DNA from: an uncultured Bacillales bacterium
GTDB taxonomy: Bacteria > Bacillota_I > Bacilli_A > RF39 > UBA660
Length of the DNA stretch: 32,000 nucleotides
Direction of reading: 5' to 3'
Assembly: GCA_902477075.1 (NCBI GenBank)
Contig: CABSFU010000002.1
Coordinates: 53,796 to 85,795 of the forward strand
Position numbers and translations under genes: made by a program. Shown here one piece after another: positions 13,741 through 28,530 of the stretch. The first letter of the stretch is position 1. Each line of letters starts with the position of its first letter. The notes beneath the pieces were generated by a model. It made no database searches. It had not been told where the DNA came from and saw nothing but the letters and a program-made list of their open reading frames with translations.

Positions 13741-14939
13741 AAGAAAAAAGTCATATAAAAATAATTATATTATTTAGTTTATTACTGATATTATTTGTGT
13801 TTATTAGTAGTTGCATTACAAAAAAACAATATCATGAATATAGTAGCTCTGCTAATAAAAAAATAAACAATTTAATAGCTTTGATAGAAGAAAAAAATAT
13901 AAATATTACAAATGATGAAATATTTGAAATATTAAATGACGATAAAGAAAATGTGATTCGTCAATATGGAATTGATATAAATCAAGATAGTATTTTGACA
14001 GATTATCCAAATATTCAAAAAAAATATAAGATGATTTATAGTATAATATTAGTCATTTATACAAGCTTTATTTTCTTAATTTATTTTTATTATCACTACA
14101 AAGAACAAAAAAAGATAAAACAAATTACGAATTATATTAAAGAAATTAATCAAAAAAAATATTATTTGGATATAAAAGACAATGGTGAAGATGAGTTATC
14201 TTTATTAAAAAATGAATTGTATAAAATAACAGTGATGTTAAAAGAACAAACAGAATTATTAAAAAAAGATAAAATCAATTTAAAAGATTCCATTAGTGAT
14301 ATTTCTCATCAATTAAAAACCCCTTTAACTTCTATTTCCATTTTATTGGATGATATTTTAGAAAATCCTAACATGAATAAAAAAACAAGAGATGAATTTT
14401 TATATAATATTCGACAAGAAGCAAATAATATTCAAATTTTAGTTCAAAATTTATTAAAATTATCTAAATTTGATGCAAATGTAATTGAATTTAAAAAAGA
14501 AAAAATAAATGTAAAAGATTTAATCAATCATTCTTTAAACAAATTAGAAATTATAAGAGAATTAAAAAATATATCCATTCATGTGGATTGCGATAAAAAA
14601 ATTTATATTAATGGTGATTCTACTTGGGAAGCAGAAGCTATATCTAATATCTTAAAAAATTCGATTGAATATTCTGATAAGGATGCTAATATTGATATTA
14701 AAGTAGAAGATAATCCTTTTTATGTAAAAATTATAATAAAAGATTATGGAAAAGGAATAAAAGAAAAAGACTTAAAAAATATTTTTAAAAGATTTTATAA
14801 AGGGGAAAATTCTATTTCTGGTAGTATTGGAATAGGATTAAATTTATCTCAAAAAATAGTAGAAAAAGATAATGGTTTTATAGATGTTTCATCTACAGAA
14901 GAGGAAACTGCTTTTGAAATAAAATATATTAAAAGTTAA
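13737..14939 (+). CDS. Sensor histidine kinase (two TM, HisKA + HATPase_c)
   Basis: H-box SHQLKTPLTS, N-box NILKNSIEYS, G-boxes DYGKGI and GIGLNL. Overlaps the regulator gene by 4 nt. Confidence 0.9.
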   Translation: MKEKSHIKIIILFSLLLILFVFISSCITKKQYHEYSSSANKKINNLIALIEEKNINITNDEIFEILNDDKENVIRQYGIDINQDSILTDYPNIQKKYKMIYSIILVIYTSFIFLIYFYYHYKEQKKIKQITNYIKEINQKKYYLDIKDNGEDELSLLKNELYKITVMLKEQTELLKKDKINLKDSISDISHQLKTPLTSISILLDDILENPNMNKKTRDEFLYNIRQEANNIQILVQNLLKLSKFDANVIEFKKEKINVKDLINHSLNKLEIIRELKNISIHVDCDKKIYINGDSTWEAEAISNILKNSIEYSDKDANIDIKVEDNPFYVKIIIKDYGKGIKEKDLKNIFKRFYKGENSISGSIGIGLNLSQKIVEKDNGFIDVSSTEEETAFEIKYIKS

Positions 14940-14961
14940 AATGATATCATTTTAACTTTTT
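14935..14961 (+). terminator. Terminator (perfect 22-nt palindrome + T-run)
   Basis: GTTAAAATGATATCATTTTAAC (14935-14956) followed by TTTTT; overlaps the kinase stop codon. Confidence 0.75.
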
Positions 14962-15110
14962 AGAATGCTTGAAATCATAAGATAGTAATACTAAATCATT
15001 AAAATAGCATACGAAAATAAAAAAATGGTAATTTGAATCATAAAAAAAGATCTGCTAAAGTGTAGTAGACAGGAGATGATAGATATTCCATAAAGAGTTT
15101 ATAAAACATA

Positions 15111-15143
15111 AAAAAGAAACTATTTTTATCTAAATAGTCTTCT
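15111..15143 (-). terminator. Terminator of the collagen-like gene
   Basis: AGAAACTATTT / AAATAGTCTTCT hairpin with one bulge; the A-run on the plus strand is a T-run on the minus strand. Confidence 0.6.
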
Positions 15144-15145
15144 TG

Positions 15146-15838
15146 TTAAGCTTCTTGTCTTCCTAAATACTCAATGAATATAGTTACTAATGAATTTGTA
15201 AAATATGAATTAGAATTAATATCTTGCAAATCTGGTGAATTTAAATAGAATGTTTGGTTCCCTAAGTTAACGATTTCGTAGGCATCTTCTGTATTAACAA
15301 TAGAAATAATTCCTTCTGCAACAATTTGATTTGCTATTTCATTATTTTTCCAACAACTTGCTCCTATATAAACATCATCAGTATTTGTTTTTCTAAAACC
15401 AATTGTAATGAAATCGGTTTTTGTATCAAAAGCAGCAGGTAATTTGTGATAAGCAGATATGGTAATGCTTACGTGATAATATCCGATTGTATTAAATTGA
15501 ATCATATTATTATTTAGCGTGACTAAATTCGTCATGTCTAATTCTTTTCTGGTAATGGGAATTTGTTTTAACACAGGAACAATGATGCCATTTTCTTCCA
15601 CTCCATCATTATAAGTCACTAAATAGCTGGATCGAGCATTATTATTTCCTTGCATTCCTTGTGGACCTGTTGGACCAATATCACCTTTTTCTCCCTGCAT
15701 TCCTTGTGGCCCGATATCACCTTTTTCACCTTTAGGACCCGTTGGGCCTATTAAAAGATAGGGATATTTTTTATTAAAATCTATTTTTTTTAAGGCTTTT
15801 TGATATATTTCTTTATCTGAATTGCATTTTTTATTCAT
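15146..15838 (-). CDS. Collagen-like (G-X-Y) repeat protein with globular C-terminal domain, BclA/exosporium-like
   Basis: 11 uninterrupted G-X-Y triplets (GPTGPKGEKGDIGPQGMQGEKGDIGPTGPQGMQ, nt 15650-15748). ATG at 15838 is preceded by AGGAGG; the track start 15886 lacks an RBS. Confidence 0.8.
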   Translation of the reverse strand: MNKKCNSDKEIYQKALKKIDFNKKYPYLLIGPTGPKGEKGDIGPQGMQGEKGDIGPTGPQGMQGNNNARSSYLVTYNDGVEENGIIVPVLKQIPITRKELDMTNLVTLNNNMIQFNTIGYYHVSITISAYHKLPAAFDTKTDFITIGFRKTNTDDVYIGASCWKNNEIANQIVAEGIISIVNTEDAYEIVNLGNQTFYLNSPDLQDINSNSYFTNSLVTIFIEYLGRQEA

Positions 15839-15964
15839 AAAAAACCTCCTTTTAGTATAGAATATGCTTTTAAAATATTGTTGCATAATGTAAAATACTA
15901 TTTTAATGGTTCAAAACTGAAAATAATAAAGTATAATAGATATTAGTGAAGAAAGGAAAAAATT

Positions 15965-16294
15965 ATGGTTGGTAAAAAACAAGAAGAAAATATAACAAAA
16001 AGAATTTTAATTACATTAAAACTATTTTATGAAAATAAAGGAAGAATTAATGATGAACAATTAGCTAGATTAGTATCGATGGAAGGAATTGTTACTTCTT
16101 CTAGTACGGTTGGTCGTGATTTGACAAGTAATCGTTTAAAAAAACTAATTCCAGAAAATGAGTATGAAGAAATTCAAAGATTGCGTAAACAAAATAAAGA
16201 ACTAGGTAAGAGTTTAGGAGGCAAAAATTTTGCTTTTTATAACGATTGTACCAGAAATGAAAGTGGACAATTTACGGGAAGTAAAAAAAGATAA
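15965..16294 (+). CDS. SpoIIID-like HTH transcriptional regulator
   Basis: SSSTVGRDLT...LIPENEYEEIQRL....LGGKN parallels the SpoIIID pattern SKSTVHKDLT..LP.I....EV..IL......GG from memory. Confidence 0.5.
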   Translation: MVGKKQEENITKRILITLKLFYENKGRINDEQLARLVSMEGIVTSSSTVGRDLTSNRLKKLIPENEYEEIQRLRKQNKELGKSLGGKNFAFYNDCTRNESGQFTGSKKR

Positions 16295-16316
16295 CTAAGT
16301 ATATAGAAAAGAAAGG

Positions 16317-16895
16317 ATGGAAATTTTGTTAGAATTAAGAAAAATAAGTAAAATTTATCAAATAAATGATTTTAAACAAAAGGCATTGAATCATGTAGAT
16401 TTAAAGTTTAGAGATAATGAATTTGTATCTATTTTAGGACCAAGTGGAAGTGGAAAAACTACACTTTTAAATATTATTGGTGGTTTAGATCAATATACCG
16501 ATGGTGATTTAATAATTAATGGAATATCTACAAAAAATTATAAAAATCAAGATTGGGATACCTATCGCAATCATAAAATCGGTTTTGTTTTTCAAAACTA
16601 TAATTTAATACCACATCAAACGGCTTTAGTAAATGTAGAGTTAGCTTTAACACTTTCTGGTATTTCAAAAGAGGAGAGAAGAAAAAGAGCAATTACTGTT
16701 TTAAAAAAAGTAGGTTTGGAAAAACATATTCATAAAAAACCAAACCAAATGTCTGGTGGACAAATGCAAAGAATTGCGATTGCAAGAGCACTTATTAATA
16801 ATCCAGATATTTTATTAGCTGATGAACCAACAGGAGCATTGTTTAAATCCAAAAAATATAATAGTTGTAATTTAAGGCCTTTATATTCCTTATAA
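16317..16895 (+). pseudogene. ABC transporter ATP-binding gene truncated after Walker B
   Basis: Walker A GPSGSGKTT, signature MSGGQMQR and Walker B ILLADEPTGAL are intact. After about nt 16841 the frame reads unrelated FKSKKYNSCNLRPLYSL*. D-loop remainder and H-loop are absent, and no partner permease follows. Confidence 0.75.
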
Positions 16896-16918
16896 TACTA
16901 AATAAATTAATATTCATT

Positions 16919-16947
16919 GATATAGAAAAAAATCTATATCTTTTTTT
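16919..16947 (+). terminator. Terminator at island left end
   Basis: GATATAGA (16919-16926) / TCTATATC (16933-16940) followed by TTTTTTT. Confidence 0.7.
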
Positions 16948-16993
16948 ATTACAAATATTTTTGTCAAAGAAATAATAAAGGGGGGTTGATAAA

Positions 16994-17872
16994 ATGACAA
17001 ATGAAATAATAAAAGTAGGAACTTTTTTTAGTGGAATAGGATCACCGGAAAAAGCTTTAGAAAGATTAAAAAGTGAAGGACATATTAAAGATTATAAAGT
17101 AGAATTTTTTTCAGAAATAGATAAAAATGCAATTAAAAGCTATTGTGTAATTCATAATGTTGATGAAAGTTTAAATCTCGGTAGTATAACTGATATTAAA
17201 GGTAAAGATTTACCATATTGTGATTTATGGATAGGTGGTTTTCCATGTCAAGATATATCTTGTGCTGGTAAGATGAAAGGATTTGATTTTACAAGTTCTA
17301 CAAGATCATCACTTGGTTGGGAGATGATTAGATTACTTAAAGAAGTAAAAACAAAACCCAAATATGTTATATTTGAAAACGTAGCTATGATAACAAGTAG
17401 GAAATTTAAGGAAACATTAAGCTTATTTAAAGAGGATTTAATAAGTTTAGGATATACATTATATGATCAATTATTAAGCGCTACTGATTATGGAATACCT
17501 CAAACTAGAACGAGGTATTTTTTAATCGCTATTTTAGATAATCAAAAAAATTTTAAATTTCCAGAAAAGATAGAAAATAATATAATTTTAAAAAATTTAT
17601 TAGAGGAATGTGTAGATGAAAAATATTACTTAACAAATTCTAATTATGTAATTAGAGGAGATAAAAGAATATTTAAGCATAAGAATAGAGAAGATATAGA
17701 ATATGAAGTGGATATGAAAAAACACTTAATTGGTGGTGTTTGTGGAATCGATAAACATACAAAGTTTGCTATATCATCAAGATTATTCTCTATTTATGGT
17801 AATTCACCTACATTGACGGCAAGCAATACATCGGATAACAGTAAAATTGTTGTAGAAAGTGAGGCAGAATAA
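16994..17872 (+). CDS. DNA (cytosine-5)-methyltransferase, N-terminal part (motifs I-VIII + target recognition region)
   Basis: Motif I FFSGIGS, motif IV GGFPCQDIS, motif VI FENV, motif VIII QTRTRYFLIA. Stops before motifs IX and X. Confidence 0.85.
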   Translation: MTNEIIKVGTFFSGIGSPEKALERLKSEGHIKDYKVEFFSEIDKNAIKSYCVIHNVDESLNLGSITDIKGKDLPYCDLWIGGFPCQDISCAGKMKGFDFTSSTRSSLGWEMIRLLKEVKTKPKYVIFENVAMITSRKFKETLSLFKEDLISLGYTLYDQLLSATDYGIPQTRTRYFLIAILDNQKNFKFPEKIENNIILKNLLEECVDEKYYLTNSNYVIRGDKRIFKHKNREDIEYEVDMKKHLIGGVCGIDKHTKFAISSRLFSIYGNSPTLTASNTSDNSKIVVESEAE

Positions 17873-18042
17873 TGAGAATCAGAAGGTTAACACCAAAAGA
17901 AACGTGGAGGTTAATGGGATTTGATGATAATGATTTTGAAAAAGCGAGTAAAGTTTGTAGTGAAACTAATCTTTATCATCAAGCGGGAAATTCTATTGTA
18001 GTGAATGTAATGTATTCAATTTTAAAAGAATTACTAAAATAA
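17872..18042 (+). CDS. DNA (cytosine-5)-methyltransferase, C-terminal part (motifs IX-X), separate 56-aa ORF
   Basis: MRIRRLTPKETWRLMGFDD (motif IX) and AGNSIVVNV (motif X). ATG overlaps the upstream TAA (TAATG) in a different frame. Below the ORF-track size cutoff. Confidence 0.75.
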   Translation: MRIRRLTPKETWRLMGFDDNDFEKASKVCSETNLYHQAGNSIVVNVMYSILKELLK

Positions 18043-18049
18043 AAAGATG

Positions 18050-18313
18050 CTATTTTGCATCCTTATTATTCTCCATAAGTTTCTCATAACCATCAAAAAA
18101 ATTTCTGATATCAAAATTATATTTTTGCGCTAAAAAGAAAAGGGTATCCAGTGAAATTCCTGTATCTACATTTGGACTTTCTATGTGAGATATAAAACTT
18201 CTACTCATATCAGTATCTTCTGCCATCTTTTCTTGTGATTTACCAATTATATCTTTTCTTATGGATTTCATATTTTGTCCTATAAGGGCGAAAAGTTCAT
18301 AAGTATTTTTCAC
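18050..18313 (-). CDS. Xre-family HTH regulator
   Basis: 87 aa; HTH_3 pattern IRKD..KSQEKMAEDTDMSRSFISHIES. Confidence 0.75.
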   Translation of the reverse strand: MKNTYELFALIGQNMKSIRKDIIGKSQEKMAEDTDMSRSFISHIESPNVDTGISLDTLFFLAQKYNFDIRNFFDGYEKLMENNKDAK

Positions 18314-18455
18314 AAAAATCCCTCCTATATATAATTTTATAGGAAATATTGATTTTATACTGCTCTCTTATAAGGAGCAATTTTGTTGCACGGTATTAAT
18401 ACTTTTGTGTTATAATTAAATTGGCACGAAAAAAGAATACTTTAGATAGTATTCT

Positions 18456-18719
18456 TTATCGCCTAGGAATACGACGATTTTCAATATTTTTCCTTTTCTC
18501 AAATAATTGGAAAAGTTCAACATTAAGTGTAGTTGCGATGTGATCAATATAGTCGATTCTAGTATTTCTTTTAGCATTTTCTAAATTAGATACATAAGTA
18601 GGTGTAGTTCCAAGTTTATCGGCAAAATCTTCTTGAGACCAACCTTTTTGTAATCTATAATACACAATATTATTTGCTAAAATATTACGAGCATTTGATT
18701 TCAATTTTATTGTCATCAC
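18456..18719 (-). CDS. Xre/cI-like HTH repressor
   Basis: 87 aa; YRLQKGWSQEDFADKLGTTPTYVSNLENAKRN is a classic HTH_3 signature. Divergent from the plus-strand island operon. Confidence 0.8.
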   Translation of the reverse strand: MMTIKLKSNARNILANNIVYYRLQKGWSQEDFADKLGTTPTYVSNLENAKRNTRIDYIDHIATTLNVELFQLFEKRKNIENRRIPRR

Positions 18720-18880
18720 ATCCTTCCTTTTTACTTACTACTATTGTAATAAGTTTATGAAAATCGAACCATACTAACTATGTAGTAAGTTATCTTAATT
18801 ATAGTAAATTAAAAAGGGAAAAATGTTGGATTTTGTGCTAAAACAAAAAGGTAGATATTTTATAAGAAAAGGAGCTAGAT

Positions 18881-19369
18881 ATGAACAAAGAAAATTTAAA
18901 TAGATATGTTAAAGAAATATCTGATATTTTAGACGGCAAAATTAAAATTATTACCTCAATTGAATATTACTATGATTTAGAAAAACTAACATCTTCACTA
19001 AAAGATTTATCTGATATAGAAGCTGAAAATGTTTTAGAACAATTGATTAATGAAAAACTAGAACAAATTAAGAAAAGTGATAAAGCAGATAAATTTAGAG
19101 AAAATAATAGACTTGTGGATGATGTAACTGAATTCTTCTATGATGATAAAGAAGAAGATGGTGCTGTTGTTGAAGAAGGAAGTTGCATAGCAACAGATTT
19201 AGTTTTAAAAACAATAGGTATAAATGGTAGAAAAATTGAATTACCAGTAAAGATTTCATATATAAAAGAATATTGTATAAGTAATATTATTGAGGAAAAG
19301 GATATAAGAAAAACGTTGTTGTGGATAGTTTTAGAACTATCAGTTGTAAGTTATTTTTTAAACAATTAA
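18881..19369 (+). CDS. Hypothetical acidic protein
   Basis: 162-aa ORF with RBS (AAAAGGAG) and a following hairpin. No recognisable motif. Confidence 0.5.
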   Translation: MNKENLNRYVKEISDILDGKIKIITSIEYYYDLEKLTSSLKDLSDIEAENVLEQLINEKLEQIKKSDKADKFRENNRLVDDVTEFFYDDKEEDGAVVEEGSCIATDLVLKTIGINGRKIELPVKISYIKEYCISNIIEEKDIRKTLLWIVLELSVVSYFLNN

Positions 19370-19420
19370 AAATAACATATATAAGTAGTAGTTAGCAGTA
19401 CCTAAATCTACCTTTTTAAG

Positions 19421-19449
19421 ACACTTCTAATACTATGGAAGTGTTTTAT
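19421..19449 (+). terminator. Hairpin/terminator between the hypothetical gene and avd
   Basis: ACACTTC (19421-19427) / GAAGTGT (19438-19444) then TTT. It overlaps the ORF-track start 19435, which favours the internal ATG 19492 for avd. Confidence 0.5.
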
Positions 19450-19491
19450 ATTGTAATTAAGTTATATTTATATAGAAAAGGTCGTGATTTG

Positions 19492-20079
19492 ATGTTACAA
19501 GTTAGTAGAGCCAACAATCTTAAAGTTCCAAAAGCATTAGAAAATACTATTGATAATTTAAATAGTGTTGATGACAAAGTTGCAGTAAAACAAGCTCTAG
19601 CAACAGCAAATAATCAAAAATTTAATAAGAATAAAGTAAAAGAAAATGTTGAAAAAGATGGTGAATTAGAAAAAATTGAAAAAATTCCATTTAATGCAAA
19701 TGATTTAATGGTTATTACAGTTGTAAAAAAATTAGGAGCTTATATAATTGCAGTTACTGAAAAATCTCCAGCTAAATATAGAGGGGTGTTTGTTAATCGC
19801 ATGCAAAATTTATCATTAGAAATATTAGAGTTGCTTTTACAAGCAAATTTTGTAAGAATAGATTGCTTAGATAATAAAAAAAAGAGAGAAGAATATCAAA
19901 AGGATGCAATAATAAAGTTAAAAATGTTAGGTTATATATCAATGGTAGCAGAAAATTCAAATTGTATTTTATCTAGACAATTTAAACAAATCTCTATACA
20001 AATTGGTGAATCTATTAACTTGATAGCAGCATGGAAGAAAAGCGATGATTCTAGATGGAACAGTCGTACAAATAATTAA
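19492..20079 (+). CDS. avd: DGR accessory variability determinant (Avd-like four-helix-bundle protein) with N-terminal extension
   Basis: The C-terminal part of about 120 aa (VITVVKKLGAYIIAVTEKSPAKYRGVFVNRMQNLSLEILELLLQAN...IAAWKKS) matches the Avd / 23S-IVS-protein helical pattern from memory. Sits immediately upstream of TR and RT. Start could be 19435 or 19492. Confidence 0.7.
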   Translation: MLQVSRANNLKVPKALENTIDNLNSVDDKVAVKQALATANNQKFNKNKVKENVEKDGELEKIEKIPFNANDLMVITVVKKLGAYIIAVTEKSPAKYRGVFVNRMQNLSLEILELLLQANFVRIDCLDNKKKREEYQKDAIIKLKMLGYISMVAENSNCILSRQFKQISIQIGESINLIAAWKKSDDSRWNSRTNN

Positions 20080-20124
20080 AGGATTTTAAACCGAAAGGTT
20101 TTTAATTAAGTAAATAATTTATTC

Positions 20125-20449
20125 TAGCGGCTTTGCTTGTGTTGCGCCTTCGGCGCAGGGCTTTGTCTTTGTCCGCGCGGTCAATAAGAATGGTAATAGG
20201 AACAACAAATATAGATACAAACGCAATGGTGCTGTTCGCCCAGATTTGCTTTTGAAGAGATTATAAAATCTAAAAAACAGGTCAGAGAAATATATTTTAA
20301 GTAAAATATATCAGAACTTTAAAGCAAAGGAATTATTTACTTTTCTAACCGCTATAATAGTGCGGTGGATAAATTTTAGTGCTCACACCAACAACGATAT
20401 GTATGTATTTTTGAAGGTTAAAAAGGAGCACTTTTTTGGTGGTGATTAT
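20125..20449 (+). ncRNA. DGR template RNA region (GC-rich leader, TR, and about 200-nt spacer up to the RT start)
   Basis: Noncoding gap between avd and RT containing the TR. Hairpins GCGCC-ttc-GGCGC (20144-20156) and ACCGC-tataatagt-GCGGT (20348-20366); GTGCTC (20379-20384) / GAGCAC (20426-20431). Ends are not determinable from sequence. Confidence 0.45.
20170..20249 (+). repeat. DGR template repeat (TR), 80 nt
   Basis: Aligns over its full length with 21774..21854. All 53 non-A positions are identical and 12 of 27 adenines differ. In the target's frame it reads VRAVNKNGNRNNKYRYKRNGAVRPDL, rich in AAY/AAR codons. Confidence 0.95.
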
Positions 20450-21478
20450 ATGAATTTAGAGAATATATTTAGTTTTGAAAACTTATATGATGCACATAAA
20501 AAATGTAGAAAATCAAAACAACATAAAGGTGAAGTTATAAGATTTGAAGTAAACATTTCAGAGAATATTTATAAATTACAAAAAGAAATAATATCAAGGA
20601 AATATAAAGTAGGAAAATATAAGGAATTTATAATATATGAACCAAAAGAAAGATTAATACAAGCTCTTCCATATAGAGATAGAATTGTATTAAGATGTTT
20701 TTGCGATAATGTTTTAATTCCAAAGATTGAAAAAAAACTAATAAATGATAATGTTGCTTGTAGAAAAGGCAAAGGAACAAAATATGGAATGGATAGATTG
20801 AAATATTTTTTGCAAAAAGAATATTTTAAGTATAATGATAATAAAGTCTATTATTTGAAATGTGATATTCGCAAATATTTTCCTAGTATTAACCATAATA
20901 TTTTAATAAATAATCTAAAAAGGATTGACTTTTCAGATGATGAATTTTGGTTTATAAAAAAAATTATAAATGAACAACCTGATAATTTAGAAAGGGGTTT
21001 AGCATTAGGTAATCAATCAAGTCAATGGTTTGCTTTATACTATCTTGATAAAATTGATAGATTGATCAAAGAAGAATTGCAAATTAAAAGTTACGTAAGA
21101 TATATGGATGATTTTATTTTACTTCATCGTGATAAAAAGTATTTACAATATTGTTTAGAAAAAATAAATAAAGTTTGTATTGAAAAATTAGATTTGGAAC
21201 TTAATCAAAAAACACAAATAGGACTTGCATATAATGGAATTGATTTTTTAGGTTTTAATCATATTTTAACAAATAGTGGTAAGGTTATTAGAAAACTTAG
21301 GTTTTCATCTAAGCAGAGAATGAGAAAACATATTAAAACCATAAGAAAACTTAAAGATAAATCCATAATTGATGAAAAATATGTTGGTATGAGAATTAAC
21401 GCTTTTAAAGCACATTTAAAACATTCTAATGAAAAAAGTATGGACAAATTATTATCCAATTTAGATAAAAAAATATAA
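20450..21478 (+). CDS. DGR reverse transcriptase
   Basis: RT motifs PYRDRIVLR, DIRKYFPSINH, LALGNQSSQWFALYYL (the DGR-type [IL]GxxxSQ signature) and YVRYMDDFILL (YMDD). ATG 20450 is preceded by GGTGGTGA. Flanked by the TR/VR pair. Confidence 0.93.
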   Translation: MNLENIFSFENLYDAHKKCRKSKQHKGEVIRFEVNISENIYKLQKEIISRKYKVGKYKEFIIYEPKERLIQALPYRDRIVLRCFCDNVLIPKIEKKLINDNVACRKGKGTKYGMDRLKYFLQKEYFKYNDNKVYYLKCDIRKYFPSINHNILINNLKRIDFSDDEFWFIKKIINEQPDNLERGLALGNQSSQWFALYYLDKIDRLIKEELQIKSYVRYMDDFILLHRDKKYLQYCLEKINKVCIEKLDLELNQKTQIGLAYNGIDFLGFNHILTNSGKVIRKLRFSSKQRMRKHIKTIRKLKDKSIIDEKYVGMRINAFKAHLKHSNEKSMDKLLSNLDKKI

Positions 21479-21543
21479 AATTTGCAAAAATAGTAAGAAA
21501 AAATGATTTTATATGATAAAATATAGATGTGGTGATGATAAAA

Positions 21544-23467
21544 ATGAATAATCAAGATTTAACTTTATTGTCGGAAGGACAAATTTGGGGTAATGAAAAA
21601 GAATCTCAATTAGAAGTAATGAGAAAGTATGGAACAAAAGCTGCAATCACAGATTTATGTGTATTGACAGGTAGCTATTTATGCGAAGATACAGATTATA
21701 ATATTGATGAAGATAGTTCTTTAAAAGGCAGAACTAGTTGGTTTTGGACTAGATCTGATGATAACGATAATGATGTCCGCGCGGTCATTAGGGCATGGTA
21801 GTAGGTACGACAGGTATAGATACAGACGCGATGGTGCTGTTCGCCCAGCTTTGCAATCTTCTGTAATCTTTTCTCAAATCTCCCCGAACAGAGTGAGGGG
21901 ATACAACGGAACTGAAGAAGTAGAATATGGAGAATATCCACAATATGCTGCTGATTCAAGAATGCAAGGTATATTAGAATCAGAATATAATAGAGGAATG
22001 AATAAAACCGGAAGAAGTTATACATTTGATTCAGTAAAATATGACGATTATGATACAGGATTCAAGCCAGTAACTTATGAAGAATATGAATATCAAGGAA
22101 AGAAATATATTCGTATAAGAGCAAATTCTGATTTTGGTGGAAATAAATTTAAACTTTCAAATGGTGTTGAATATAGAGATGGCGATTGCGTTTGGGTAGA
22201 AGTATCACCTGTAAAATGGTTAATTGATGATAGAACAGGAATATTAGTTTCAAAAATAGGGTTAGTTTCTGGAATAAGATTTCTTGATAGAAATCATAAT
22301 TATAAAGGTGATTTTAGTAGAACAGAAATGAAGGAATATCTTGATAAATATATGATACGCGATTTAACTCAAACAGCAACATTTACTCGTGTTCAAGATA
22401 TGACTCCAGAAGAAAAAGCTCAATTTGAAGAAGAAAGAAAACAAGCTGAAAAAAGAAGAAATCCTTATGGTTTAAAATTTGGACAAGTTAGTGAAGAAGA
22501 AATTATTCAGGGTGCAATAGAAAGTGGTGTAGCAGTATTCTTGCATGGACCTTCATCAGAAGGTAAATCTGCAAGAGTAAAACAAATAGATCCTACTTGT
22601 GAAATAATTTATCTAAGAAATGCAACACCAGAAAGTTTAAATGGTAAAAGTGTTTACAATCAAGCAACAGGTGAAATGATAGATGTTAAACCAAGTTGGC
22701 TTAAAAAGTTAGAAGAAAAATGTGAAAAAGAACCAGACAGATTTCATATTTTATTTTTAGATGAAATTACAAATGCACTACCAAGTATTCAAGGTATAGC
22801 ATTTAATATAGTTTTAGATAGAGAAGTTAATGGTATTTGGAAATTGCCAGAAAACGCTAGAATAGTTGCAGCCGGTAATGATATGAAAGATTCATTAGCT
22901 GCAAATCAATTAGCAGAACCATTATTTAATAGATTTGCTCATGTTTATATTAAAACAACTACTGAAAGTTGGTTAAAATGGGCAAGTGAACATAATATAC
23001 ATCCTGCTATTTATTCATATATTGCTTATAAAAAAGGTGAAACATTAAGAAGTAAATATGATGGTGAAAAACCTAACGCAGATCCAAGAAAATGGGAAAT
23101 GGCTTCAAAAATGTTATATGCAACAGGTAGTCCAGAAATGTTAAGAGCGTTAGTAGGAGAGGATATAACAAGAGAATTTGTACAATTTTGTAATCAACAA
23201 GTTATAACATTAGATGATGTAATAAATGAAAATTATACCCAAAGAGACATACAAGCATTAAATACAGCAGAAAGATATGCAACAACTATGGGGTTATCAC
23301 AAGTTGATGATAACAACTTAGAAAAAGTAAGAGGTTTTGTTGCAGGATTAGGAGCAGAGTTTGGAGCAATTTTTGATGCTTTATGGACACATGGCGATGA
23401 AAGCAAATTAGAAAGACTTGCAGAAGCAAAACTTGCTGAAATGTCAGAAGGAGGTATAAGAAGATAA
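21544..23467 (+). CDS. DGR target (variable) protein: N-terminal VR-bearing domain fused to a MoxR/AAA_5-like ATPase; as sequenced it is interrupted by a 1-nt insertion inside the VR
   Basis: ORFs 21529..21801 and 21758..23467 are offset by +1. The TR frame is continuous across the junction, so removing 1 nt near 21793-21795 restores a protein of about 640 aa. Walker A GPSSEGKS (22547-22570), Walker B ILFLDE (22748-22765), sensor-1 IVAAGN, LFNRF. No signal peptide or TM segment visible. Confidence 0.8.
21774..21854 (+). repeat. DGR variable repeat (VR), 81 nt
   Basis: Cognate of TR with 12 A-to-N substitutions plus one extra nucleotide. The invariant GC-rich 3' end GGTGCTGTTCGCCCAG is a candidate IMH (initiation of mutagenic homing) site. 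Confidence 0.95.
21881..21901 (+). other. Short GC hairpin 27 nt downstream of VR
   Basis: TCCCC-gaacagagtga-GGGGA. DGRs often carry a hairpin/cruciform just 3' of VR; this one is weak (5 bp, 11-nt loop). Confidence 0.3.
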
Positions 23468-23859
23468 TGGAAAATAAGAAAGAAATATTACTATCATATA
23501 TAAGAGCAAATGTTGCACCAATTTTAGTTGATTTTATATCTGGTAATGATATAAATGGTGCAGTTGTATTACCCGCCAATGTTGATGTTAAAGAGTTAAA
23601 TGGTCATTATGATGGAGCTGATTTTATGCCACCAAAATGGCTTAATGAAATATTAAGTACAAATGCAAGTAAAATTTTAGTAATTGATAAAATTGATGCA
23701 ATAGCAAAAGAAGAACAATTAAAATTCTGTGAATTGTTAGAACACAGAAAAATATCTACATTTGAATTACCAAAAAGTTGTGTGATAATTGTAACAGCAA
23801 ACGAAATAAATAAAGATAAGATAAACGAAGAAATATTCTCATTAGTTGCACGAATTTGA
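23467..23859 (+). CDS. Small protein resembling a degenerate AAA+ half-domain (no Walker A)
   Basis: 130 aa; ILVIDKIDAI (Walker-B-like hhhhD), EEQLKFCELLEHRKI and CVIIVTAN (sensor-1-like) follow the AAA_5 order. The ATG overlaps the target gene's stop (TAATG). Confidence 0.6.
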   Translation: MENKKEILLSYIRANVAPILVDFISGNDINGAVVLPANVDVKELNGHYDGADFMPPKWLNEILSTNASKILVIDKIDAIAKEEQLKFCELLEHRKISTFELPKSCVIIVTANEINKDKINEEIFSLVARI

Positions 23860-23869
23860 GGTATAAGTT

Positions 23870-25468
23870 ATGAAATATGATATTGCAGCATTAAAAAGAA
23901 AAATGCTTGTTAAATATCCCTTTTTTGGGAGTGTAGTAGCAAGTGTAGGTTATAAAGAAAACAAAGATATACCAACCGCAGGTACAGATGGAGAAACAAT
24001 TTACTATAATCCTAAATATTTAGAAAGTTTAAGTGTTGAAGAACAAACTTTTATATTTGCTCATGAAGTATGTCATATTGCATTCAATCATATATTAAGA
24101 AGTGAAGGTAAAGATCCAGAGTTATGGAATATTGCTACTGATGGTGTTATTAATCAATTTTTAAAACGAGATGGATTAAAAATGGCACCGGGTGGTGTTG
24201 ATATGGCAGAAGCTATTAATTATGATGCTGAACAGTTATATGAAAAACTATTACAAGAAAAACAACAAAGACAACAGCAACAACAAAATGGACAAGGTAA
24301 TAGTCAAAGCGAACAAGGTAATCAGCAACAAAATCAACAACAAAGCAGTGGTAGTAGTCAAGGCGAAAATGGTCAACAACAATCTCAATCACAACAACAA
24401 ACTGGCGATTCACAAAATCAAGAACAAAATCAAGAAGACCAGAAACAAAATAGTGGTGCAGGACAAAGTGGAGATGAACAACAACAATCTCAACAACAAA
24501 ATAGTTCTAATAGTGGAAACTCACAAGAACAAGATAAGCAATCACAAGAACAAAGCGGTGGTGGATCTGAGAAAGATTCACAAGAAGAAGATAAATCAAA
24601 GCAAGATGTTGGACATGATACTCACAGTATGTGGGAGCAAGCAGTTAAAAAGCACAAAGAGCAACAAGAAAAATCTGATAAAAAAGAGAGCTTATTAGAT
24701 AAACTTTTAGGAAAAGATAAAAAAGAAAAAGAAAAGAGTGAACTAGAAAAGAAACAAGAAGAACTTGAAGGCATGGGAGAAAAAGATGCTTTTAAGAAAA
24801 ATCTTGAAGATAAGAAAAAGCAACTTGAAGAATTAAAAGAAGCAATTTCTAAACAAGCATCACAAGCAGGAACTTCAACAAATAGAGATGTTAGAACAGT
24901 TAATGATATTGGTACTGCAAAACCAATAGTTGATTGGCGATATGTTTTGAGAGAAGCAATTAAATATGATGTAGATTGGTCATATAAAAATGCTACATTA
25001 GAAGATGGAGTTGTTACTGCTAATTTAGAAGAACAACCAATGCCAGAAACTGAAATTGTTCTTGATACAAGTGGTTCAATAAATGAAGTATTATTAAAGA
25101 ACTTTTTAAGAGAATGTAAAAATATATTACAACATACTAAATTAAAAGTAGGATGTTTTGATACAGAATTTTATGGATTTCATGAAATTAGAACGGAAGA
25201 AGATATAGAAAATATGCGATTTGAAGGTGGTGGAGGAACTGACTTTGATGTCGCTGTAGGCGCTTTTTCAAGAAGAGTTGAAAATAAAATAATATTTACT
25301 GATGGAGATGCTTCAATGCCAGATATGTCAATTGATGCAATATGGATAGTATTTGGTGGTGAAAAAATTAGTCCAAAAGGTGGTAAAGTAATTCACATTA
25401 CATCAGAACAATTAGATAGGTTATATTCATACGAAATTGAAAGTGAAACTAAAGGTAGATCAAGATAA
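23870..25468 (+). CDS. Putative Zn-metallopeptidase (DUF2201_N-like, HExxH) + VWA-like domain protein with long Q/S/E/K-rich linker
   Basis: N-terminal KYPFFGSVV...PTAGTDGETIYYNP...FAHEVCHIAFNH (HEVCH at 24062-24076). C-terminal VWA-like region with DTSGS MIDAS motif (25064-25078), GGGGTDF and IFTDGDA. RBS GAGG precedes the start. Confidence 0.8.
   Translation: MKYDIAALKRKMLVKYPFFGSVVASVGYKENKDIPTAGTDGETIYYNPKYLESLSVEEQTFIFAHEVCHIAFNHILRSEGKDPELWNIATDGVINQFLKRDGLKMAPGGVDMAEAINYDAEQLYEKLLQEKQQRQQQQQNGQGNSQSEQGNQQQNQQQSSGSSQGENGQQQSQSQQQTGDSQNQEQNQEDQKQNSGAGQSGDEQQQSQQQNSSNSGNSQEQDKQSQEQSGGGSEKDSQEEDKSKQDVGHDTHSMWEQAVKKHKEQQEKSDKKESLLDKLLGKDKKEKEKSELEKKQEELEGMGEKDAFKKNLEDKKKQLEELKEAISKQASQAGTSTNRDVRTVNDIGTAKPIVDWRYVLREAIKYDVDWSYKNATLEDGVVTANLEEQPMPETEIVLDTSGSINEVLLKNFLRECKNILQHTKLKVGCFDTEFYGFHEIRTEEDIENMRFEGGGGTDFDVAVGAFSRRVENKIIFTDGDASMPDMSIDAIWIVFGGEKISPKGGKVIHITSEQLDRLYSYEIESETKGRSR
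24254..24875 (+). repeat. Low-complexity coding tract (CAA/CAG-rich Q/S/N/E segment, then K/E-rich segment)
   Basis: aa ~129-245 are QQRQQQQQNGQGNSQSEQGNQQQNQQQSSGSSQ...; aa ~255-335 are KEKEKSELEKKQEELE... The tract also generates the spurious ORFs 24192..24698 and 24216..24413. Confidence 0.8.
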
Positions 25469-25477
25469 AAGATAAAA

Positions 25478-25510
25478 AACATAATTCGTGGTTTTGAATT
25501 ATGTTTTTTT
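25478..25510 (+). terminator. Strong terminator ending the DGR/AAA/VWA transcription unit
   Basis: AACATAATTC (25478-25487) / GAATTATGTT (25496-25505), 10-bp stem, then T-run. Confidence 0.8.
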
Positions 25511-25565
25511 ATATACAAAAATAAAGTAAAAAATATATGTATTATATTATGTGAAAGGAGGAAAC

Positions 25566-26660
25566 ATGATAGAAACAATTGATAAAATTTATTCTAGAAA
25601 AGATGGAAGATTTGAAATTAGGTATCATTATGGATATAAGGATGATGGTACATCAAATTATAAATCTGTTTATGGTAATAGTGAGACTGAAGTAATAAAA
25701 AATTATCATAAAACTATAGATGATTTAATAAGTAAAAATGATTTACTTATATATGATAAAACTTATATTGGTTATTACATATATTTGTGGTTAAATAATT
25801 CAAAAATAAAAAATAAGAAATCAACTTATTCAAATTATCAATATACTATTAAATCTAGGATTATTCCAAAGTTTGCAAGTGTTAAGAAAAAAACAATTTC
25901 TTTGGAATTAATTAATAAATTTACAGCGGATTTGTTAAGTGAGGGTTTGGTTGAAAAAAGTGTTAAAGATATTTTAATTATATTACAGCAAATCTTGAAA
26001 TATGGTAATATTAATATCAAAATTCCAATGCCAAAAGTACCTAAAAATGAAATTCAAATTTTTAAAAAAGATGAACAAGCAAAACTTGAAGAAGAATTAC
26101 TAAAAAATATGAACGAAACAACTTTTGGTATTTATTTTTGTCTTTATACAGGTTTAAGAATTGGTGAAATATGTGCGTTACAATGGAAAGATATTGATTT
26201 AAAAAACAAAAAAATTAAAGTAAAGAAAACTTTAATTAGAATTAAAAACCCAGACGAAAATGTAAAGAAAAAAACAATTGTAATAATTGATGAACCAAAA
26301 TCTGCATCTTCTATAAGAGAAATCCCAATACCTGATTTCTTAATTTCTATTTTAACTAAATTAAGTGTTAATGTAACTCCGGAAACTTTTTTAGTATCTG
26401 GATATGAAAAGTTTGTTGAAACAAGAACATATTTCAATAGATATAAAAAGATACTTGAGCAGCTTAATTTAGAAATATATAATTTTCATGCTTTAAGGCA
26501 TACATTTGCTACCAGATGTATTGAAAATGGCTGTGATCCAAAAACTTTAAGTGAAATATTAGGACATTCAAGTGTAAAAATAACATTAGAAAGATATGTT
26601 CATCCTAATTATGAAAATAAGGTTATTATGATGAATCAACTAAAACCATTATTTTTTTAA
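25566..26660 (+). CDS. int: Tyrosine recombinase / phage-type integrase
   Basis: N-terminal arm-binding-like SRKDGRFEIRYHYGYKDDG; catalytic region TGLRIGEICAL, HALRHTFAT, LGHSSVKITLERYVH. ATG 25566 follows GAAAGGAGG. Confidence 0.9.
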   Translation: MIETIDKIYSRKDGRFEIRYHYGYKDDGTSNYKSVYGNSETEVIKNYHKTIDDLISKNDLLIYDKTYIGYYIYLWLNNSKIKNKKSTYSNYQYTIKSRIIPKFASVKKKTISLELINKFTADLLSEGLVEKSVKDILIILQQILKYGNINIKIPMPKVPKNEIQIFKKDEQAKLEEELLKNMNETTFGIYFCLYTGLRIGEICALQWKDIDLKNKKIKVKKTLIRIKNPDENVKKKTIVIIDEPKSASSIREIPIPDFLISILTKLSVNVTPETFLVSGYEKFVETRTYFNRYKKILEQLNLEIYNFHALRHTFATRCIENGCDPKTLSEILGHSSVKITLERYVHPNYENKVIMMNQLKPLFF

Positions 26661-26703
26661 AAGCATAATTTGATATGTTATATGTGTATTAATATTTTTT
26701 CCT

Positions 26704-26719
26704 AAAGTAATCTACTTTA
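26704..26719. repeat. Left arm of a 16-nt perfect inverted repeat (AAAGTAATCTACTTTA)
   Basis: Reverse complement of 26861..26876. The arm itself is an AAAGT-N5-ACTTT palindrome. Confidence 0.85.
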
Positions 26720-26860
26720 AGAAAAAATCAGTGTTTTTTTATATAAAATTCAAAAAAGTGTCTAAAAATGAGCATAAAAAAAGAACAATTTATAAATTTA
26801 TGCCCAAAAAATGACAAAAATAGTGTATAATTGTTTTAGGATATGGAAATATTCTAATCA

Positions 26861-26876
26861 TAAAGTAGATTACTTT
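26861..26876. repeat. Right arm of a 16-nt perfect inverted repeat (TAAAGTAGATTACTTT)
   Basis: Lies 141 nt from the left arm and just upstream of the GNAT RBS. A TATAAT box (26826-26831) lies between the arms. Confidence 0.85.
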
Positions 26877-26897
26877 GAGAAATGGGAGGTGTTTTTA

Positions 26898-27338
26898 ATG
26901 AATTTAGAATTCAAAGTTGCAACATTTAAAGATATTGAAGATATAATTATGTTATGTAATGAATGCTTTAATGAGAATACTGATTTAAATTACGCAAAAC
27001 GGATTTATCAAGAAAATGAGAAAGATCCAAATCAAATATACCTTATAGGAGTTTTAAATAATGAGATTGTAGCTCATGCAAAGATAAATATTATTCCAAC
27101 AATTTATGAGGATATGAATACTTATGCAATTTTAAATCATGTATGTGTTAAACCAAAATTTAGACGAGAACATATAGGAACAAAAATGCTAGATGAATGT
27201 TTTAGAATCGCTAAAGAACATAATTGCAAATGTGTTGAATTATGGTCAAAAAATTTTAGAGAGGCTGCACATGGACTTTATCATAGTTATGGATTTGAAG
27301 TTATGGATGCAAAATTCTTTTCAAAAAATGTAGATTAG
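26898..27338 (+). CDS. GNAT-family N-acetyltransferase
   Basis: ATG 26898 after GGGAGGTG; motif A region VCVKPKFRREHIGTKML. Size of about 146 aa is typical. Confidence 0.8.
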   Translation: MNLEFKVATFKDIEDIIMLCNECFNENTDLNYAKRIYQENEKDPNQIYLIGVLNNEIVAHAKINIIPTIYEDMNTYAILNHVCVKPKFRREHIGTKMLDECFRIAKEHNCKCVELWSKNFREAAHGLYHSYGFEVMDAKFFSKNVD

Positions 27339-27348
27339 GAGTTAAATT

Positions 27349-28530
27349 ATGAAAATTAGTAATGTTTATATAGGTGGTTGGTTTCAAAGAACCATGCTAC
27401 AATTATCAGAGATTTATGATTTTTTGAGAGATTGTAAAACTCAATTAAACTTAGATCAAGATAAATTGAATGAATTTCGTAAGAATTTAGAAATAGGAAA
27501 AATAGATTATGGAGTTTCAGGAGAAGAATTTATTGAGTTTACTACTGCTTTAAATATTAAAGTAAAAATATTTGAAGATGGTTTGATTGTTTTAAATAAC
27601 CAAAATGTTAGCGAAGATACATTATTTGCTGATATTGATCATGTAACTGATTATTATGAAAATAGATTATCTCCTGCATTTAGCTATTTATTTAGTTTAG
27701 GTGCACCAGTTCCGAAAGAACTTGCAAATATAGAAACAGTTTATCCATATTTTATAGTATGTGATAATGTTACAAAGGATGATATTTCTAATTTGTTAGC
27801 TAGGACAGAAAAACAAAAGTATTTTGAATTTGTAACTGATAAATATGACGTTATCAGAGGAGATAAATATTATTTTATTAATAATAAAAAACAATCTAAT
27901 GAGAATATTGAAAGATACATTGAAGAACAAATCTTTATAAGAGAATTTAAGGGACAATTACATCGTTATTTAAATATTCATAGAATTATATGGGAGAAAA
28001 TTGATACAGTAAAAGAAAATGCAAATGTCAAGGGTTCTGAAATTGTTAAGTTTACTTCAAAATTAGAAGGATATGCTAAGACAATAAATTTGATAGATGG
28101 AAGAATTAATCAAATGAGTACATATATTTCAACAAGAGAAAAAATTGCCAAAAGTGATAAAGAACTTGCAGAATTCTTGGCTATTTCAGGATATAGGTAT
28201 GAAACATTAAGAGATACATTAGATTATATAAAATATTTGTGGGCTATGACTAAAAATTATGTTTCATCAGCACAAAAATTATTTGATGGAATAAAATCAG
28301 ATGTTACTAGTAAATCTGTTGATAGTCTAACTATTGTTACATCTATGAGTGCTGGTGCATCAATCATTGGTTTGTTAACAGAAACAGCTCCTGAATTTAC
28401 AATATTCGGAGTAGTATATTTCTTCTTACTTGCATTATTAGGTTGGAGTTCAACAAAAATACTTGGAGCTATCTCTAATAAAAGAAAATATGAAGTATCT
28501 GATGTTGAATATGAGAAAGATATAAAGTAG
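27349..28530 (+). CDS. Hypothetical protein, large cytoplasmic domain + two C-terminal TM helices
   Basis: 393 aa with hydrophobic stretches LTIVTSMSAGASIIGLL and FTIFGVVYFFLLALLGW near the C-terminus. No motif recognised. Confidence 0.55.
   Translation: MKISNVYIGGWFQRTMLQLSEIYDFLRDCKTQLNLDQDKLNEFRKNLEIGKIDYGVSGEEFIEFTTALNIKVKIFEDGLIVLNNQNVSEDTLFADIDHVTDYYENRLSPAFSYLFSLGAPVPKELANIETVYPYFIVCDNVTKDDISNLLARTEKQKYFEFVTDKYDVIRGDKYYFINNKKQSNENIERYIEEQIFIREFKGQLHRYLNIHRIIWEKIDTVKENANVKGSEIVKFTSKLEGYAKTINLIDGRINQMSTYISTREKIAKSDKELAEFLAISGYRYETLRDTLDYIKYLWAMTKNYVSSAQKLFDGIKSDVTSKSVDSLTIVTSMSAGASIIGLLTETAPEFTIFGVVYFFLLALLGWSSTKILGAISNKRKYEVSDVEYEKDIK

Follow-up and report, generated by a model that had tools for sequence, protein, structure and literature searches.

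A probable chromosomal diversity-generating retroelement and its frameshifted AAA+ ATPase target gene in an uncultured Bacillales bacterium

We examined a window of 32,000 nucleotides (the whole stretch of DNA analysed) from an uncultured Bacillales bacterium, and conclude with high confidence that it contains a chromosomal diversity-generating retroelement (DGR) of canonical machinery that is active in its lineage. The adenine-specific pattern of differences between a template repeat (TR) and a variable repeat (VR), together with a reverse transcriptase (RT) resembling that of the Bordetella phage DGR (bRT) and an Avd gene, identifies the locus as a DGR. The original prediction of a DGR is thus upheld by an RT closest to bRT, an Avd match in PHROG, a non-coding TR situated between avd and the RT gene, and adenine-specific differences. 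It had also called the element complete, which is correct for the list of parts but not for the target ORF, which is frameshifted. The features of the locus and its surroundings are as follows.

18881..19369, + strand: 162-aa protein, the first cassette gene, kept upstream of avd in L002-L008 at 66-97% identity
19492..20079, + strand: Avd-like accessory gene, 195 aa from the ATG at 19492 (ORF open from 19435)
20170..20249, + strand: template repeat (TR), non-coding, with 27 adenines, from repeat search and alignment
20245..20449, + strand: putative structured spacer RNA, from the TR to the RT gene, from an alignment of 9 loci
20450..21478, + strand: predicted DGR reverse transcriptase, 342 aa, with PDB, PHROG and Pfam RVT_1 matches
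21535..21801, + strand: 5' part of the target gene (88 aa), which stops at a frameshift-created TAG within the VR
21758..23467, + strand: rest of the target gene, a 569-aa ORF that is in the target's frame from 21795 on
21774..21854, + strand: variable repeat (VR), 81 nt, with 11 substitutions at A sites and one inserted base (21793/21794)
23467..23859, + strand: 130-aa protein, a conserved partner kept in L002-L009 and in the DGR-free triad of L095
23870..25468, + strand: DUF2201_N metallopeptidase and DUF2201 VWA-like protein, 532 aa, the last cassette gene, from Pfam and PHROG
25551..26660, + strand: tyrosine integrase (Pfam Phage_integrase, 5e-28), beside the cassette and outside the conserved unit

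Repeat comparison and alignment give a TR of 80 nt and a VR of 81 nt, so the two do not align end to end as had been proposed. A GC-rich 16-nt block at their 3' ends, GGTGCTGTTCGCCCAG, is identical between them and occurs exactly twice in the window, where zero occurrences are expected; within the window the repeat search found no second TR/VR-like repeat and no extra VRs. Translated in the frame of the target, the TR reads VRAVNKNGNRNNKYRYKRNGAVRPDL. The corrected alignment contains 11 substitutions from TR to VR, all 11 of them on TR adenines (20184, 20187, 20189, 20196, 20201, 20204, 20208, 20209, 20220, 20225 and 20244), and the probability that all 11 would fall by chance on the 27 adenines among 80 positions is 1.2e-6. 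The earlier count of 12 substitutions was one too high: the presumed A to C change at 20190 is actually a 1-nt insertion in the VR (TR AAGAATGG, VR AGGGCATGG; the extra base is either 21793 or 21794). This insertion, which puts the target out of frame, is the sole exception in the window to the claim that the pair differs only at template adenines. The 53 C, G and T positions of the TR are unchanged in the VR (53/53), in agreement with the prediction, and careful alignment in search of substitutions off adenines, which would have spoken against a DGR, found none in this pair.

The best solved relative of the RT in a PDB search is bRT (8ub7_A, E=1e-36), with the next best match at 3e-8, and the protein matches phrog_1423 at E=1.3e-106. 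The YMDD and DGR-type LGNQSSQ motifs that had been reported between the repeats were located at 21101-21112 and 21005-21025, respectively. By its best PDB match, motifs and PHROG, the RT is, on sequence grounds, a member of the DGR clade. The upstream gene proposed to be Avd-like matches phrog_3206 ("Avd protein of DGR") at E=1.1e-13, and its matches to NCBIfam DivGenRetAVD (3.9e-5) and Pfam bAvd (1.4e-4) are both full-length and both under the curated cut-offs; no PDB match was found for it by sequence or profile search. In relatives this gene always adjoins the TR and the RT gene.

A reading that dispenses with a DGR would have a chance or duplicated repeat lying beside an unrelated RT, such as that of a group II intron, a retron or a defence system. 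In its favor, NCBIfam contains no DGR-RT match above cut-off, the best being a group II intron RT model at 88.7 bits versus a cut-off of 300, and PADLOC returns generic RT and DRT matches for the RT. However, the bRT match of 1e-36 far exceeds that to any group II or retron structure, the LGxxxSQ motif of the RT is of the DGR type, an Avd gene adjoins the TR and RT, and the adenine-only pattern is repeated without exception in more than 20 related loci. These four observations rule this reading out, and we consider its probability to be close to nil.

The spacer between the TR and the RT gene contains helices P1 (20245-20252/20321-20328), in which the 3' end of the TR is paired with AAAGCAAA, P2 (20258-20262/20267-20271), P3 (20290-20298/20303-20311) and P4 (20344-20352/20362-20369), and a terminator-like hairpin at about 20381-20437. 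In the alignment of 9 loci 96.5% of cells are paired, versus 37-56% in slid controls, and compensatory changes are found in 17 of 30 pairs; 0 of 500 shuffles came out as high. The covarying pairs include the duplex of the TR 3' end. The P1 duplex fits the cis-priming duplex from a cryo-EM study of the bRT-Avd-RNA complex (bioRxiv 10.1101/2023.10.23.563531). No Rfam family matched the TR/spacer RNA, and on the 3' side of the VR the fold of 21826-21930 was no better than shuffles (z = +1.17), with no hairpin or cruciform detected.

Position 20244 is an A in every TR and a C or T, never an A, in every VR, including those of distant relatives; this difference looks like a fixed IMH*/IMH-type mismatch rather than a fresh product of mutagenesis. 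A20242 never varies, although it is the synonymous third position of a Pro codon, and at the C/T site 20232 the TR and VR agree in 4 of the 4 loci carrying both. From the invariant A20242, the never-A position 20244 and the agreement at 20232, we infer that the boundary of transfer lies between 20232 and 20242. The shared block, together with the mismatch at 20244, is consistent with an IMH. Within the proposed mechanism, the avd-TR-spacer-RT region would be transcribed and the RNA would fold such that the 3' end of the TR (UUUGCUUU, 20245-20252) pairs with AAAGCAAA about 70 nt downstream. Cis-priming would presumably take place at P1, the RT-Avd complex would copy the TR into cDNA with misincorporation at adenines, and the cDNA would take the place of the target's VR, the putative homing boundary being the GC-rich block that the two repeats share at their 3' ends.

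Comparison with related loci points to an active family. TRs of relatives are identical or 1-2 bases apart, with 12 distinct VRs; in L002, L004, L005, L008 and L092 the TR is identical or near-identical to the present one, whereas the VRs of those loci differ. Of the changes in 15 VRs taken from other assemblies, 194 are A-to-N and 7 are of other kinds; these VRs differ from the TR at 24 of its 27 adenine positions. Six of the 7 non-adenine changes are C/T at 20218 and 20232, sites at which the TR is polymorphic in this clade; a cognate TR on the same contig carries the same base as its VR, and such changes are not among the six. Polymorphisms of the TR are, as judged from these alignments, transferred to the VR. 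Among about 120 intact homologues of the target protein the columns of highest entropy are exactly residues 82-96, and the codons without adenine (G85, R95 and G97) are nearly invariant. The excess of A-to-N changes and the entropy peak at the VR codons argue that this DGR family is active, and the comparison across assemblies and strains indicates that diversification of the VR is ongoing with a constant TR.

As assembled, the target gene of this genome is broken by one additional base in its VR; in relatives the gene is intact. The insertion shifts the frame, such that the 5' ORF (21529/21535-21801) runs into a TAG within the VR. The remainder of the target continues in another frame as the ORF 21758-23467, which includes the other part of the N-terminal domain as well as a MoxR-class AAA+ ATPase. 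Removal of one base gives a protein of 640 aa with 93-97% identity to the intact database proteins mentioned above. The exact sequence of the 88-aa 5' fragment is on record as P0137. The same frameshift, in identical sequence, is present in two assemblies, one under NCBI and ENA and the other the Logan assembly of SRR1761706, which may derive from the same reads.

The DGR could be as described and the extra base an artefact of assembly or sequencing, in which case the genome itself would have an intact target gene. VR sequences are mixed within a population, where assemblers can yield a chimeric consensus; a short run of G (AGGGC) precedes the extra base; each of the 15 other VRs from close relatives in this clade is 80 nt long; and reads may be shared by the two frameshift-bearing assemblies. 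Nevertheless, the frameshifted sequence is identical in two different assemblies, and frameshifted VR alleles arise independently elsewhere: of the -1 alleles in the A-rich tract, one is shared by L096 and L097, which come from two different samples, and a different one is carried by L098, while L013 has a +2 allele. Frameshifting indels between TR and VR have also been reported from throughout the DGR tree (Wu et al. 2018, PMC5758913). We therefore regard an artefact as unlikely, though with a chance that is far from negligible. Additionally, L011 has a TGA allele, stop alleles are found at AAG, AAA and AGA codons, and the TRs of L010 and L011 contain a TAA. These further null alleles (-1, +2 and stop codons) indicate that DGR-made knock-outs recur in this family. 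In the present genome the latest homing event, or a later slip, would have left one extra base in the VR and thereby a null or truncated allele of the target, which further homing from the in-frame TR could restore, presumably making the change reversible.

Another reading is that of a decaying, no longer active DGR whose TR/VR pair is a fossil, with the frameshift marking the start of the target's pseudogenisation. The broken target ORF would fit such decay, as would the adjacent C5-methylase, which likewise appears as two ORFs, and the VR of L013, in which the +2 indel is accompanied by several non-adenine changes. On the other hand, the RT, Avd, TR and spacer RNA of this locus are intact, the RT is 98% identical to the RTs of relatives that have intact, diversified targets, and there are zero non-adenine substitutions between this TR and VR, where a fossil would gather random changes. 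Decay is in our estimation very unlikely.

The VR lies near the N-terminus of the target, in a domain that weakly resembles DUF6273 and is joined to a cytoplasmic MoxR-class AAA+ ATPase; in the structural model it encodes a beta-hairpin and loops at residues about 85-99 of the 643-aa protein. Similarity of this domain to DUF6273 is under the Pfam threshold (E = 0.022; 1e-4 for the best family member), its AF2 model is confident (pLDDT 90.7, pTM 0.90), and Foldseek found no significant match for it in PDB or BFVD. A C-type lectin fold for the VR domain was rejected, since these Foldseek searches returned nothing significant and the only similarity is the sub-threshold one to DUF6273. Within the ATPase, Walker A (GPSSEGKS) is located at 22547-22570 and Walker B (ILFLDE) at 22748-22765; the match to the ATPase phrog_1297 has E=1.3e-47 and that to Pfam AAA_5 is weak (E = 0.01). 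The best Foldseek matches of the ATPase model, from an AF2 prediction for the intact homologue P0005 (pLDDT 86), are NorQ and CbbQ (E 6e-10 to 2e-8, TM 0.63-0.68). From the Walker motifs and the Foldseek matches of the predicted structure, the target is classified as a MoxR-class AAA+ ATPase.

The target belongs to a 6.6-kb cassette that recurs in gut Bacilli and Alphaproteobacteria with the gene order avd-TR-RT-target, then the 130-aa protein and then the DUF2201 protein. Homology with other genomes begins at 18867 and stops at 25467/25468 in L002, L005 and L009 and at about 25470 in L088. The 162-aa protein has no Pfam, NCBIfam, PHROG or PADLOC match and the 130-aa protein has a weak AAA match at most, while the DUF2201 protein matches Pfam DUF2201_N (5.6e-39), DUF2201 (VWA-like, 7e-14) and phrog_1314 (E=6.3e-67); we found nothing relevant in the literature on DUF2201. 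The same triad of ATPase, 130-aa protein and DUF2201 protein is encoded without a DGR in L095. The MoxR ATPase would work together with the 130-aa protein and the VWA/metallopeptidase protein, and the position of the VR in the ATPase's N-terminal domain suggests that what the DGR varies in this intracellular ATPase-VWA machine is its presumed ligand-recognition tip. The most plausible role of the machine is that of a sensor for elements that invade or compete. PADLOC lists none of the proteins of the ATPase/VWA module in a known defence system, and Pfam, NCBIfam and PADLOC detected no VMAP, trypsin-like peptidase, TIR, EAD or adaptor domains in the cassette proteins. No match to the integrase was found in the 2 kb downstream of the L002 cassette, no att repeats were found around it, and the TR/VR pattern is absent from IMG/VR viral contigs. 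A prophage origin was rejected on the latter two results and on the location of the integrase outside the conserved cassette.

The prototype of these elements is the DGR of Bordetella phage BPP-1 (mtd-avd-TR-brt). The two have in common an RT of the same clade with an IGxxxSQ-type motif and YMDD, an Avd partner, a non-coding TR beside the RT gene, adenine-specific TR-to-VR transfer, a GC-rich shared 3' block with a mismatch that distinguishes TR from VR, and pairing of the TR 3' end with downstream spacer RNA. Unlike in BPP-1, the order here is avd-TR-RT-target with the target downstream, the element is chromosomal, no hairpin was detected 3' of the VR, and the Avd protein is longer at its N-terminus by about 70-90 aa; the VR is found close to the N-terminus of a 643-aa cytoplasmic ATPase, whereas in BPP-1 it lies at the C-terminus of a tail-fibre C-type lectin.

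DGR-linked MoxR-vWA (VMAP) ternary conflict systems are found in cyanobacteria and purple sulfur bacteria (Kaur et al. 2020, PMC7159879; Dore et al. 2024, PMC10907252). Like the present locus, they combine a DGR with a MoxR-class AAA+ ATPase, a vWA protein and a peptidase, and their diversified domain is likewise proposed to be a cytoplasmic sensor. However, their VR is carried by a C-terminal CLec/FGS domain, in most cases as a fusion with the vWA protein, while here it lies in an N-terminal DUF6273-like domain on the ATPase itself; the vWA protein here bears a DUF2201_N metallopeptidase, domains of the VMAP, TIR, trypsin or adaptor kinds were not observed, and the hosts are small-genome gut Bacilli and Alphaproteobacteria rather than multicellular bacteria. 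DGR targets with a DUF6273 domain are known from gut phages, as tentaclins (PMC10743442) and in Faecalibacterium prophages (PMC11792537). These also have the VR at the C-terminal end of a DUF6273-type segment, in a beta-hairpin and flanking loops, but they are receptor-binding proteins in which Ig-like domains follow, whereas the present domain has sub-threshold DUF6273 similarity and is fused to an ATPase. The NorQ/NorD and CbbQ/CbbO pairs, which are MoxR-VWA chaperones, resemble our locus in that the ATPase model superposes on NorQ and CbbQ and the VWA partner gene lies two genes downstream; in contrast, NorQ/CbbQ ATPases are without an N-terminal recognition domain and without a DGR, their VWA partners are without a metallopeptidase domain, and their clients (nitric oxide reductase and Rubisco) are not encoded nearby here.

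The DGR element itself is of a known kind and its target is uncommon. Tens of thousands of DGRs have been catalogued. The VRs reported by large surveys are C-terminal and sit in proteins that have C-type lectin folds and are mostly membrane-anchored or part of phage tails (Roux et al. 2021, PMC8144416), and among the 372 DGRs counted by Wu et al. 2018 (PMC5758913) only 3 had an N-terminal VR. The cassette is kept across two phyla of gut bacteria, and the family takes the concept of intracellular sensors diversified by DGRs beyond multicellular bacteria. Public datasets contain a natural series of DGR-made knock-outs, both frameshifts and stops, that is informative on the cost and error rate of mutagenic homing. 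It is conceivable, though in our opinion quite unlikely, that the DGR serves an intracellular immune-like sensor in unicellular gut Bacilli and Alphaproteobacteria, diversifying a recognition domain seated on a MoxR ATPase that acts with a VWA-metallopeptidase, and that the frequent null alleles are a reversible OFF state limiting cost or self-reactivity. The OFF alleles would then be the +1 here, the -1 and +2 elsewhere, the stops at AAG, AAA and AGA, and the TAA in the TRs of L010 and L011, and one retroelement would provide both phase variation and specificity variation.

A single GC-rich direct repeat stands out in the window, against a genome-wide G+C content of 26.6%. Its two copies are the template repeat (TR) and variable repeat (VR) of a diversity-generating retroelement (DGR), and the 16-mer GGTGCTGTTCGCCCAG is present at these two places only, with no occurrences expected. 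The features concerned are listed below.

Features of the DGR and its target (window positions)
19492-20079, avd (accessory variability determinant) gene, 5' of the TR
20170-20249, TR, 80 nt, inside the 371-nt non-coding gap from avd to the reverse transcriptase (RT) gene
20450-21478, RT gene; RVT_1 domain, LGNQSSQ, YMDD
21774-21854, VR, 81 nt, in the target gene
3' of the target, gene for a 130-aa protein
3' of the target, gene for a DUF2201_N metallopeptidase plus VWA-like protein

Base-by-base comparison of the repeats gave 11 substitutions, every one at a TR adenine: positions 20184 and 20201 become T in the VR, 20187, 20189, 20196, 20204, 20208, 20209, 20220 and 20225 become G, and 20244 becomes C. 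The probability that all 11 would sit on adenines by chance is 1.2e-6, and none of the 53 non-adenine TR positions is changed, as the original prediction had stated. The VR also carries a 1-nt insertion at 21793/21794, where TR AAGAATGG corresponds to VR AGGGCATGG. The end-to-end alignment first proposed is off by one base (80 nt against 81 nt), and the twelfth substitution claimed with it, 20190 to C, is this insertion; the description of a difference confined to adenines is accurate for all 11 substitutions and does not cover the inserted base. Immediately 5' of the TR, at 20142-20158, is a strong GC hairpin (UGCGCC-UUC-GGCGCA). It is found in the close clade (L002, L004 and L005, related loci in other assemblies) and is not evident at the same position in the related loci L006, L007 and L009, where TR/VR homology reaches further 5'.

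The retroelement machinery is canonical. The RT encoded between the repeats has both motifs claimed for it, YMDD and the DGR-type LGNQSSQ; its best match is the Bordetella phage DGR RT (8ub7_A, E = 1e-36), ahead of the group II intron, retron and Cas-linked RTs, none of which does better than E = 3e-8, and it matches phrog_1423 at E = 1.3e-106. The Avd-like gene anticipated upstream matches the PHROG 'Avd protein of DGR' (E = 1.1e-13), and its product gives full-length matches, under their cut-offs, to the Pfam and NCBIfam Avd models.

These genes belong to a 6.6-kb cassette, for which homology to other genomes spans 18867-25468; its first gene encodes an unassigned 162-aa protein, and the adjoining integrase lies outside it. 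Scanning genomes with the RT recovered this cassette from gut MAGs, some labelled as Tenericutes or Bacilli (RT identity 61-98%) and others as Alphaproteobacteria (about 51%). Wherever a locus has both repeats, its TR and VR form a pair of their own that differs almost only at adenines. In 15 close-clade VRs, four from the genome scan and 11 from a metagenome pattern scan, we counted 194 A-to-N changes and seven others, and departures from the TR at 24 of the 27 TR-adenine positions. Six of the seven exceptions are C/T changes at 20218 and 20232, which are exactly the sites of TR polymorphism in the close clade, and at loci holding both repeats the base at these sites is identical in TR and VR; we read this sharing as direct evidence for TR-to-VR information flow. 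Across the columns of 120 intact homologues, protein variability peaks exactly at residues 82-96, and the adenine-free codons G85, R95 and G97 are near-invariant.

We aligned nine loci, whose RTs are 50-100% identical, over the spacer, taken from the TR 3' end up to the RT start codon (window 20245-20449 with L005, L006, L007, L009, L010, L011, L012 and L016). Four helices make up the spacer RNA fold; 96.5% of cells are paired and 17 of 30 pairs have compensatory changes, across Bacilli and Alphaproteobacteria; none of 500 shuffles scored as high as observed, slid controls were 37-56% paired, and no Rfam family matches this RNA. In helix P1 the TR 3' terminal bases UUUGCUUU (20245-20252) pair with AAAGCAAA (20321-20328), about 70 nt downstream, and this duplex would prime cDNA synthesis at the window DGR. 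A20242 is invariant even though, as third base of a Pro codon, it could change synonymously; position 20244 is A in all TRs, whereas all VRs have C or T there and none has A, alphaproteobacterial loci included; and the 20232 polymorphism is concordant between TR and VR in four of four loci with both repeats. From these patterns we infer that TR-to-VR transfer stops between 20232 and 20242; the 20244 difference would then be a fixed one of the IMH*/IMH type (IMH, the 3' homing boundary element) and not a product of mutagenesis. No hairpin was found 3' of the VR.

The target gene is split into two ORFs because of the 1-nt insertion: translation from ATG 21535 or 21544 meets a TAG at 21799-21801, within the VR, and the remainder is an ORF in a different frame (21758-23467). 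Deleting one base in silico gives a 640-aa protein; about 120 intact database proteins, 640-645 aa long, share 93-97% full-length identity with it. The extra base may be an assembly error. The 569-aa ORF product is known from two contigs only among NCBI, ENA and Logan records; the Logan assembly of SRR1761706 is identical to window 14450-27478 and has the same broken target.

Wu et al. (2018) observed frameshifting TR/VR indels throughout the DGR tree, and template slippage has been put forward for errors of bRT, the Bordetella phage BPP-1 RT (PMC12875486). Among other VRs we found two distinct -1 deletions in the AACAACAAA tract, one of them present in two separate samples. A decaying copy may be present at the related locus L013, whose VR (7275-7387) has a +2 insertion, three changes at non-adenine positions and numerous A-to-T changes. 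The TRs of the alphaproteobacterial loci L010 (about 5660-5790) and L011 (5639-5749) carry an in-frame TAA where relatives have TGG, so that an unmutated copy would be a null allele; the L011 VR (7275-7385) has TGA from the TAA of its own TR, and the target is truncated at 77 aa. Target fragments in databases terminate at stops derived from AAG, AAA and AGA codons, which can mutate to stops, whereas AAY cannot. Null VR alleles are a minority, because all 15 close-clade VRs at the DNA level are in frame. Two further fragments of 33 aa (P0139 and P0147) are truncated upstream of the VR (...EVMRKKL*); P0139 occurs on 76 contigs, the longest of 1.5 Mb, suggesting that the pseudogene became fixed in a single, widely sampled strain or species.

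The intact homologue P0005 was modeled with AlphaFold2 from 43 diverse relatives, and the model is confident (pLDDT 86). Its C-terminal half superposes on the MoxR-class ATPases NorQ and CbbQ (TM 0.63-0.68), and this half of the target has Walker A and Walker B motifs. The N-terminal 285 residues, modeled separately (pLDDT 90.7, pTM 0.90), gave no significant PDB or BFVD hit. Residues 50-106 resemble the C-terminal end of Pfam DUF6273 below threshold (E = 0.022), with matches in five of 22 family members (best E = 1e-4); gut phages are known to use DUF6273 as a DGR scaffold, described as C-type-lectin-like and as carrying the VR at the C-terminal end (PMC10743442, PMC11792537). The modeled VR is a beta-hairpin of strands 80-84 and 90-94, flanked by loops. 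The target is presumably cytoplasmic, since its sequence, when read for a signal peptide or hydrophobic N-terminus, has neither. Many of the 7,976 relatives from a library-wide search share this N-domain-plus-ATPase layout.

DGR links to MoxR-vWA conflict systems have already been published (PMC7159879, PMC10907252); in those, however, the VR lies in a C-terminal CLec/FGS domain, usually of the vWA protein, and they occur in multicellular bacteria. C-terminal VRs are the rule in surveys (PMC8144416), and N-terminal VRs were reported for three of 372 DGRs (Wu et al. 2018). In the open-access literature we found no description of a DGR diversifying a domain fused to the MoxR ATPase itself. The window DGR is of a known type with an uncommon target layout, and the function of its target system is a putative one.

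Several other features surround these genes. In the DUF2201 gene, a low-complexity linker rich in Gln, Asn and Ser and containing imperfect 69-nt repeats (24272-24499) separates the metallopeptidase and VWA-like domains, and gene length varies among relatives. A C5 cytosine DNA methylase adjoining the cassette consists of two ORFs, of 292 aa (16994-17872) and 56 aa (17872-18042), both matching PF00145; the split may be natural or due to a frameshift. Two small HTH (XRE/cI-like) regulator genes on the minus strand (18050-18313 and 18456-18719), divergent from and upstream of the cassette, could regulate its expression. A minus-strand ORF for a collagen-like Gly-X-Y repeat protein (GPTGPKGEKGDIGP...) lies at 15146-15886 and contains short tandem repeats at 15642-15731.

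At the related locus L095 (6001-9630), an ATPase 61% identical to that of the target is encoded with the same two partners (131-aa and DUF2201 proteins) and without RT or Avd; this triad adjoins a 1822-aa protein with sigma-70 domains. The ATPase/VWA triad is thus an independent module, which a DGR serves in some lineages.
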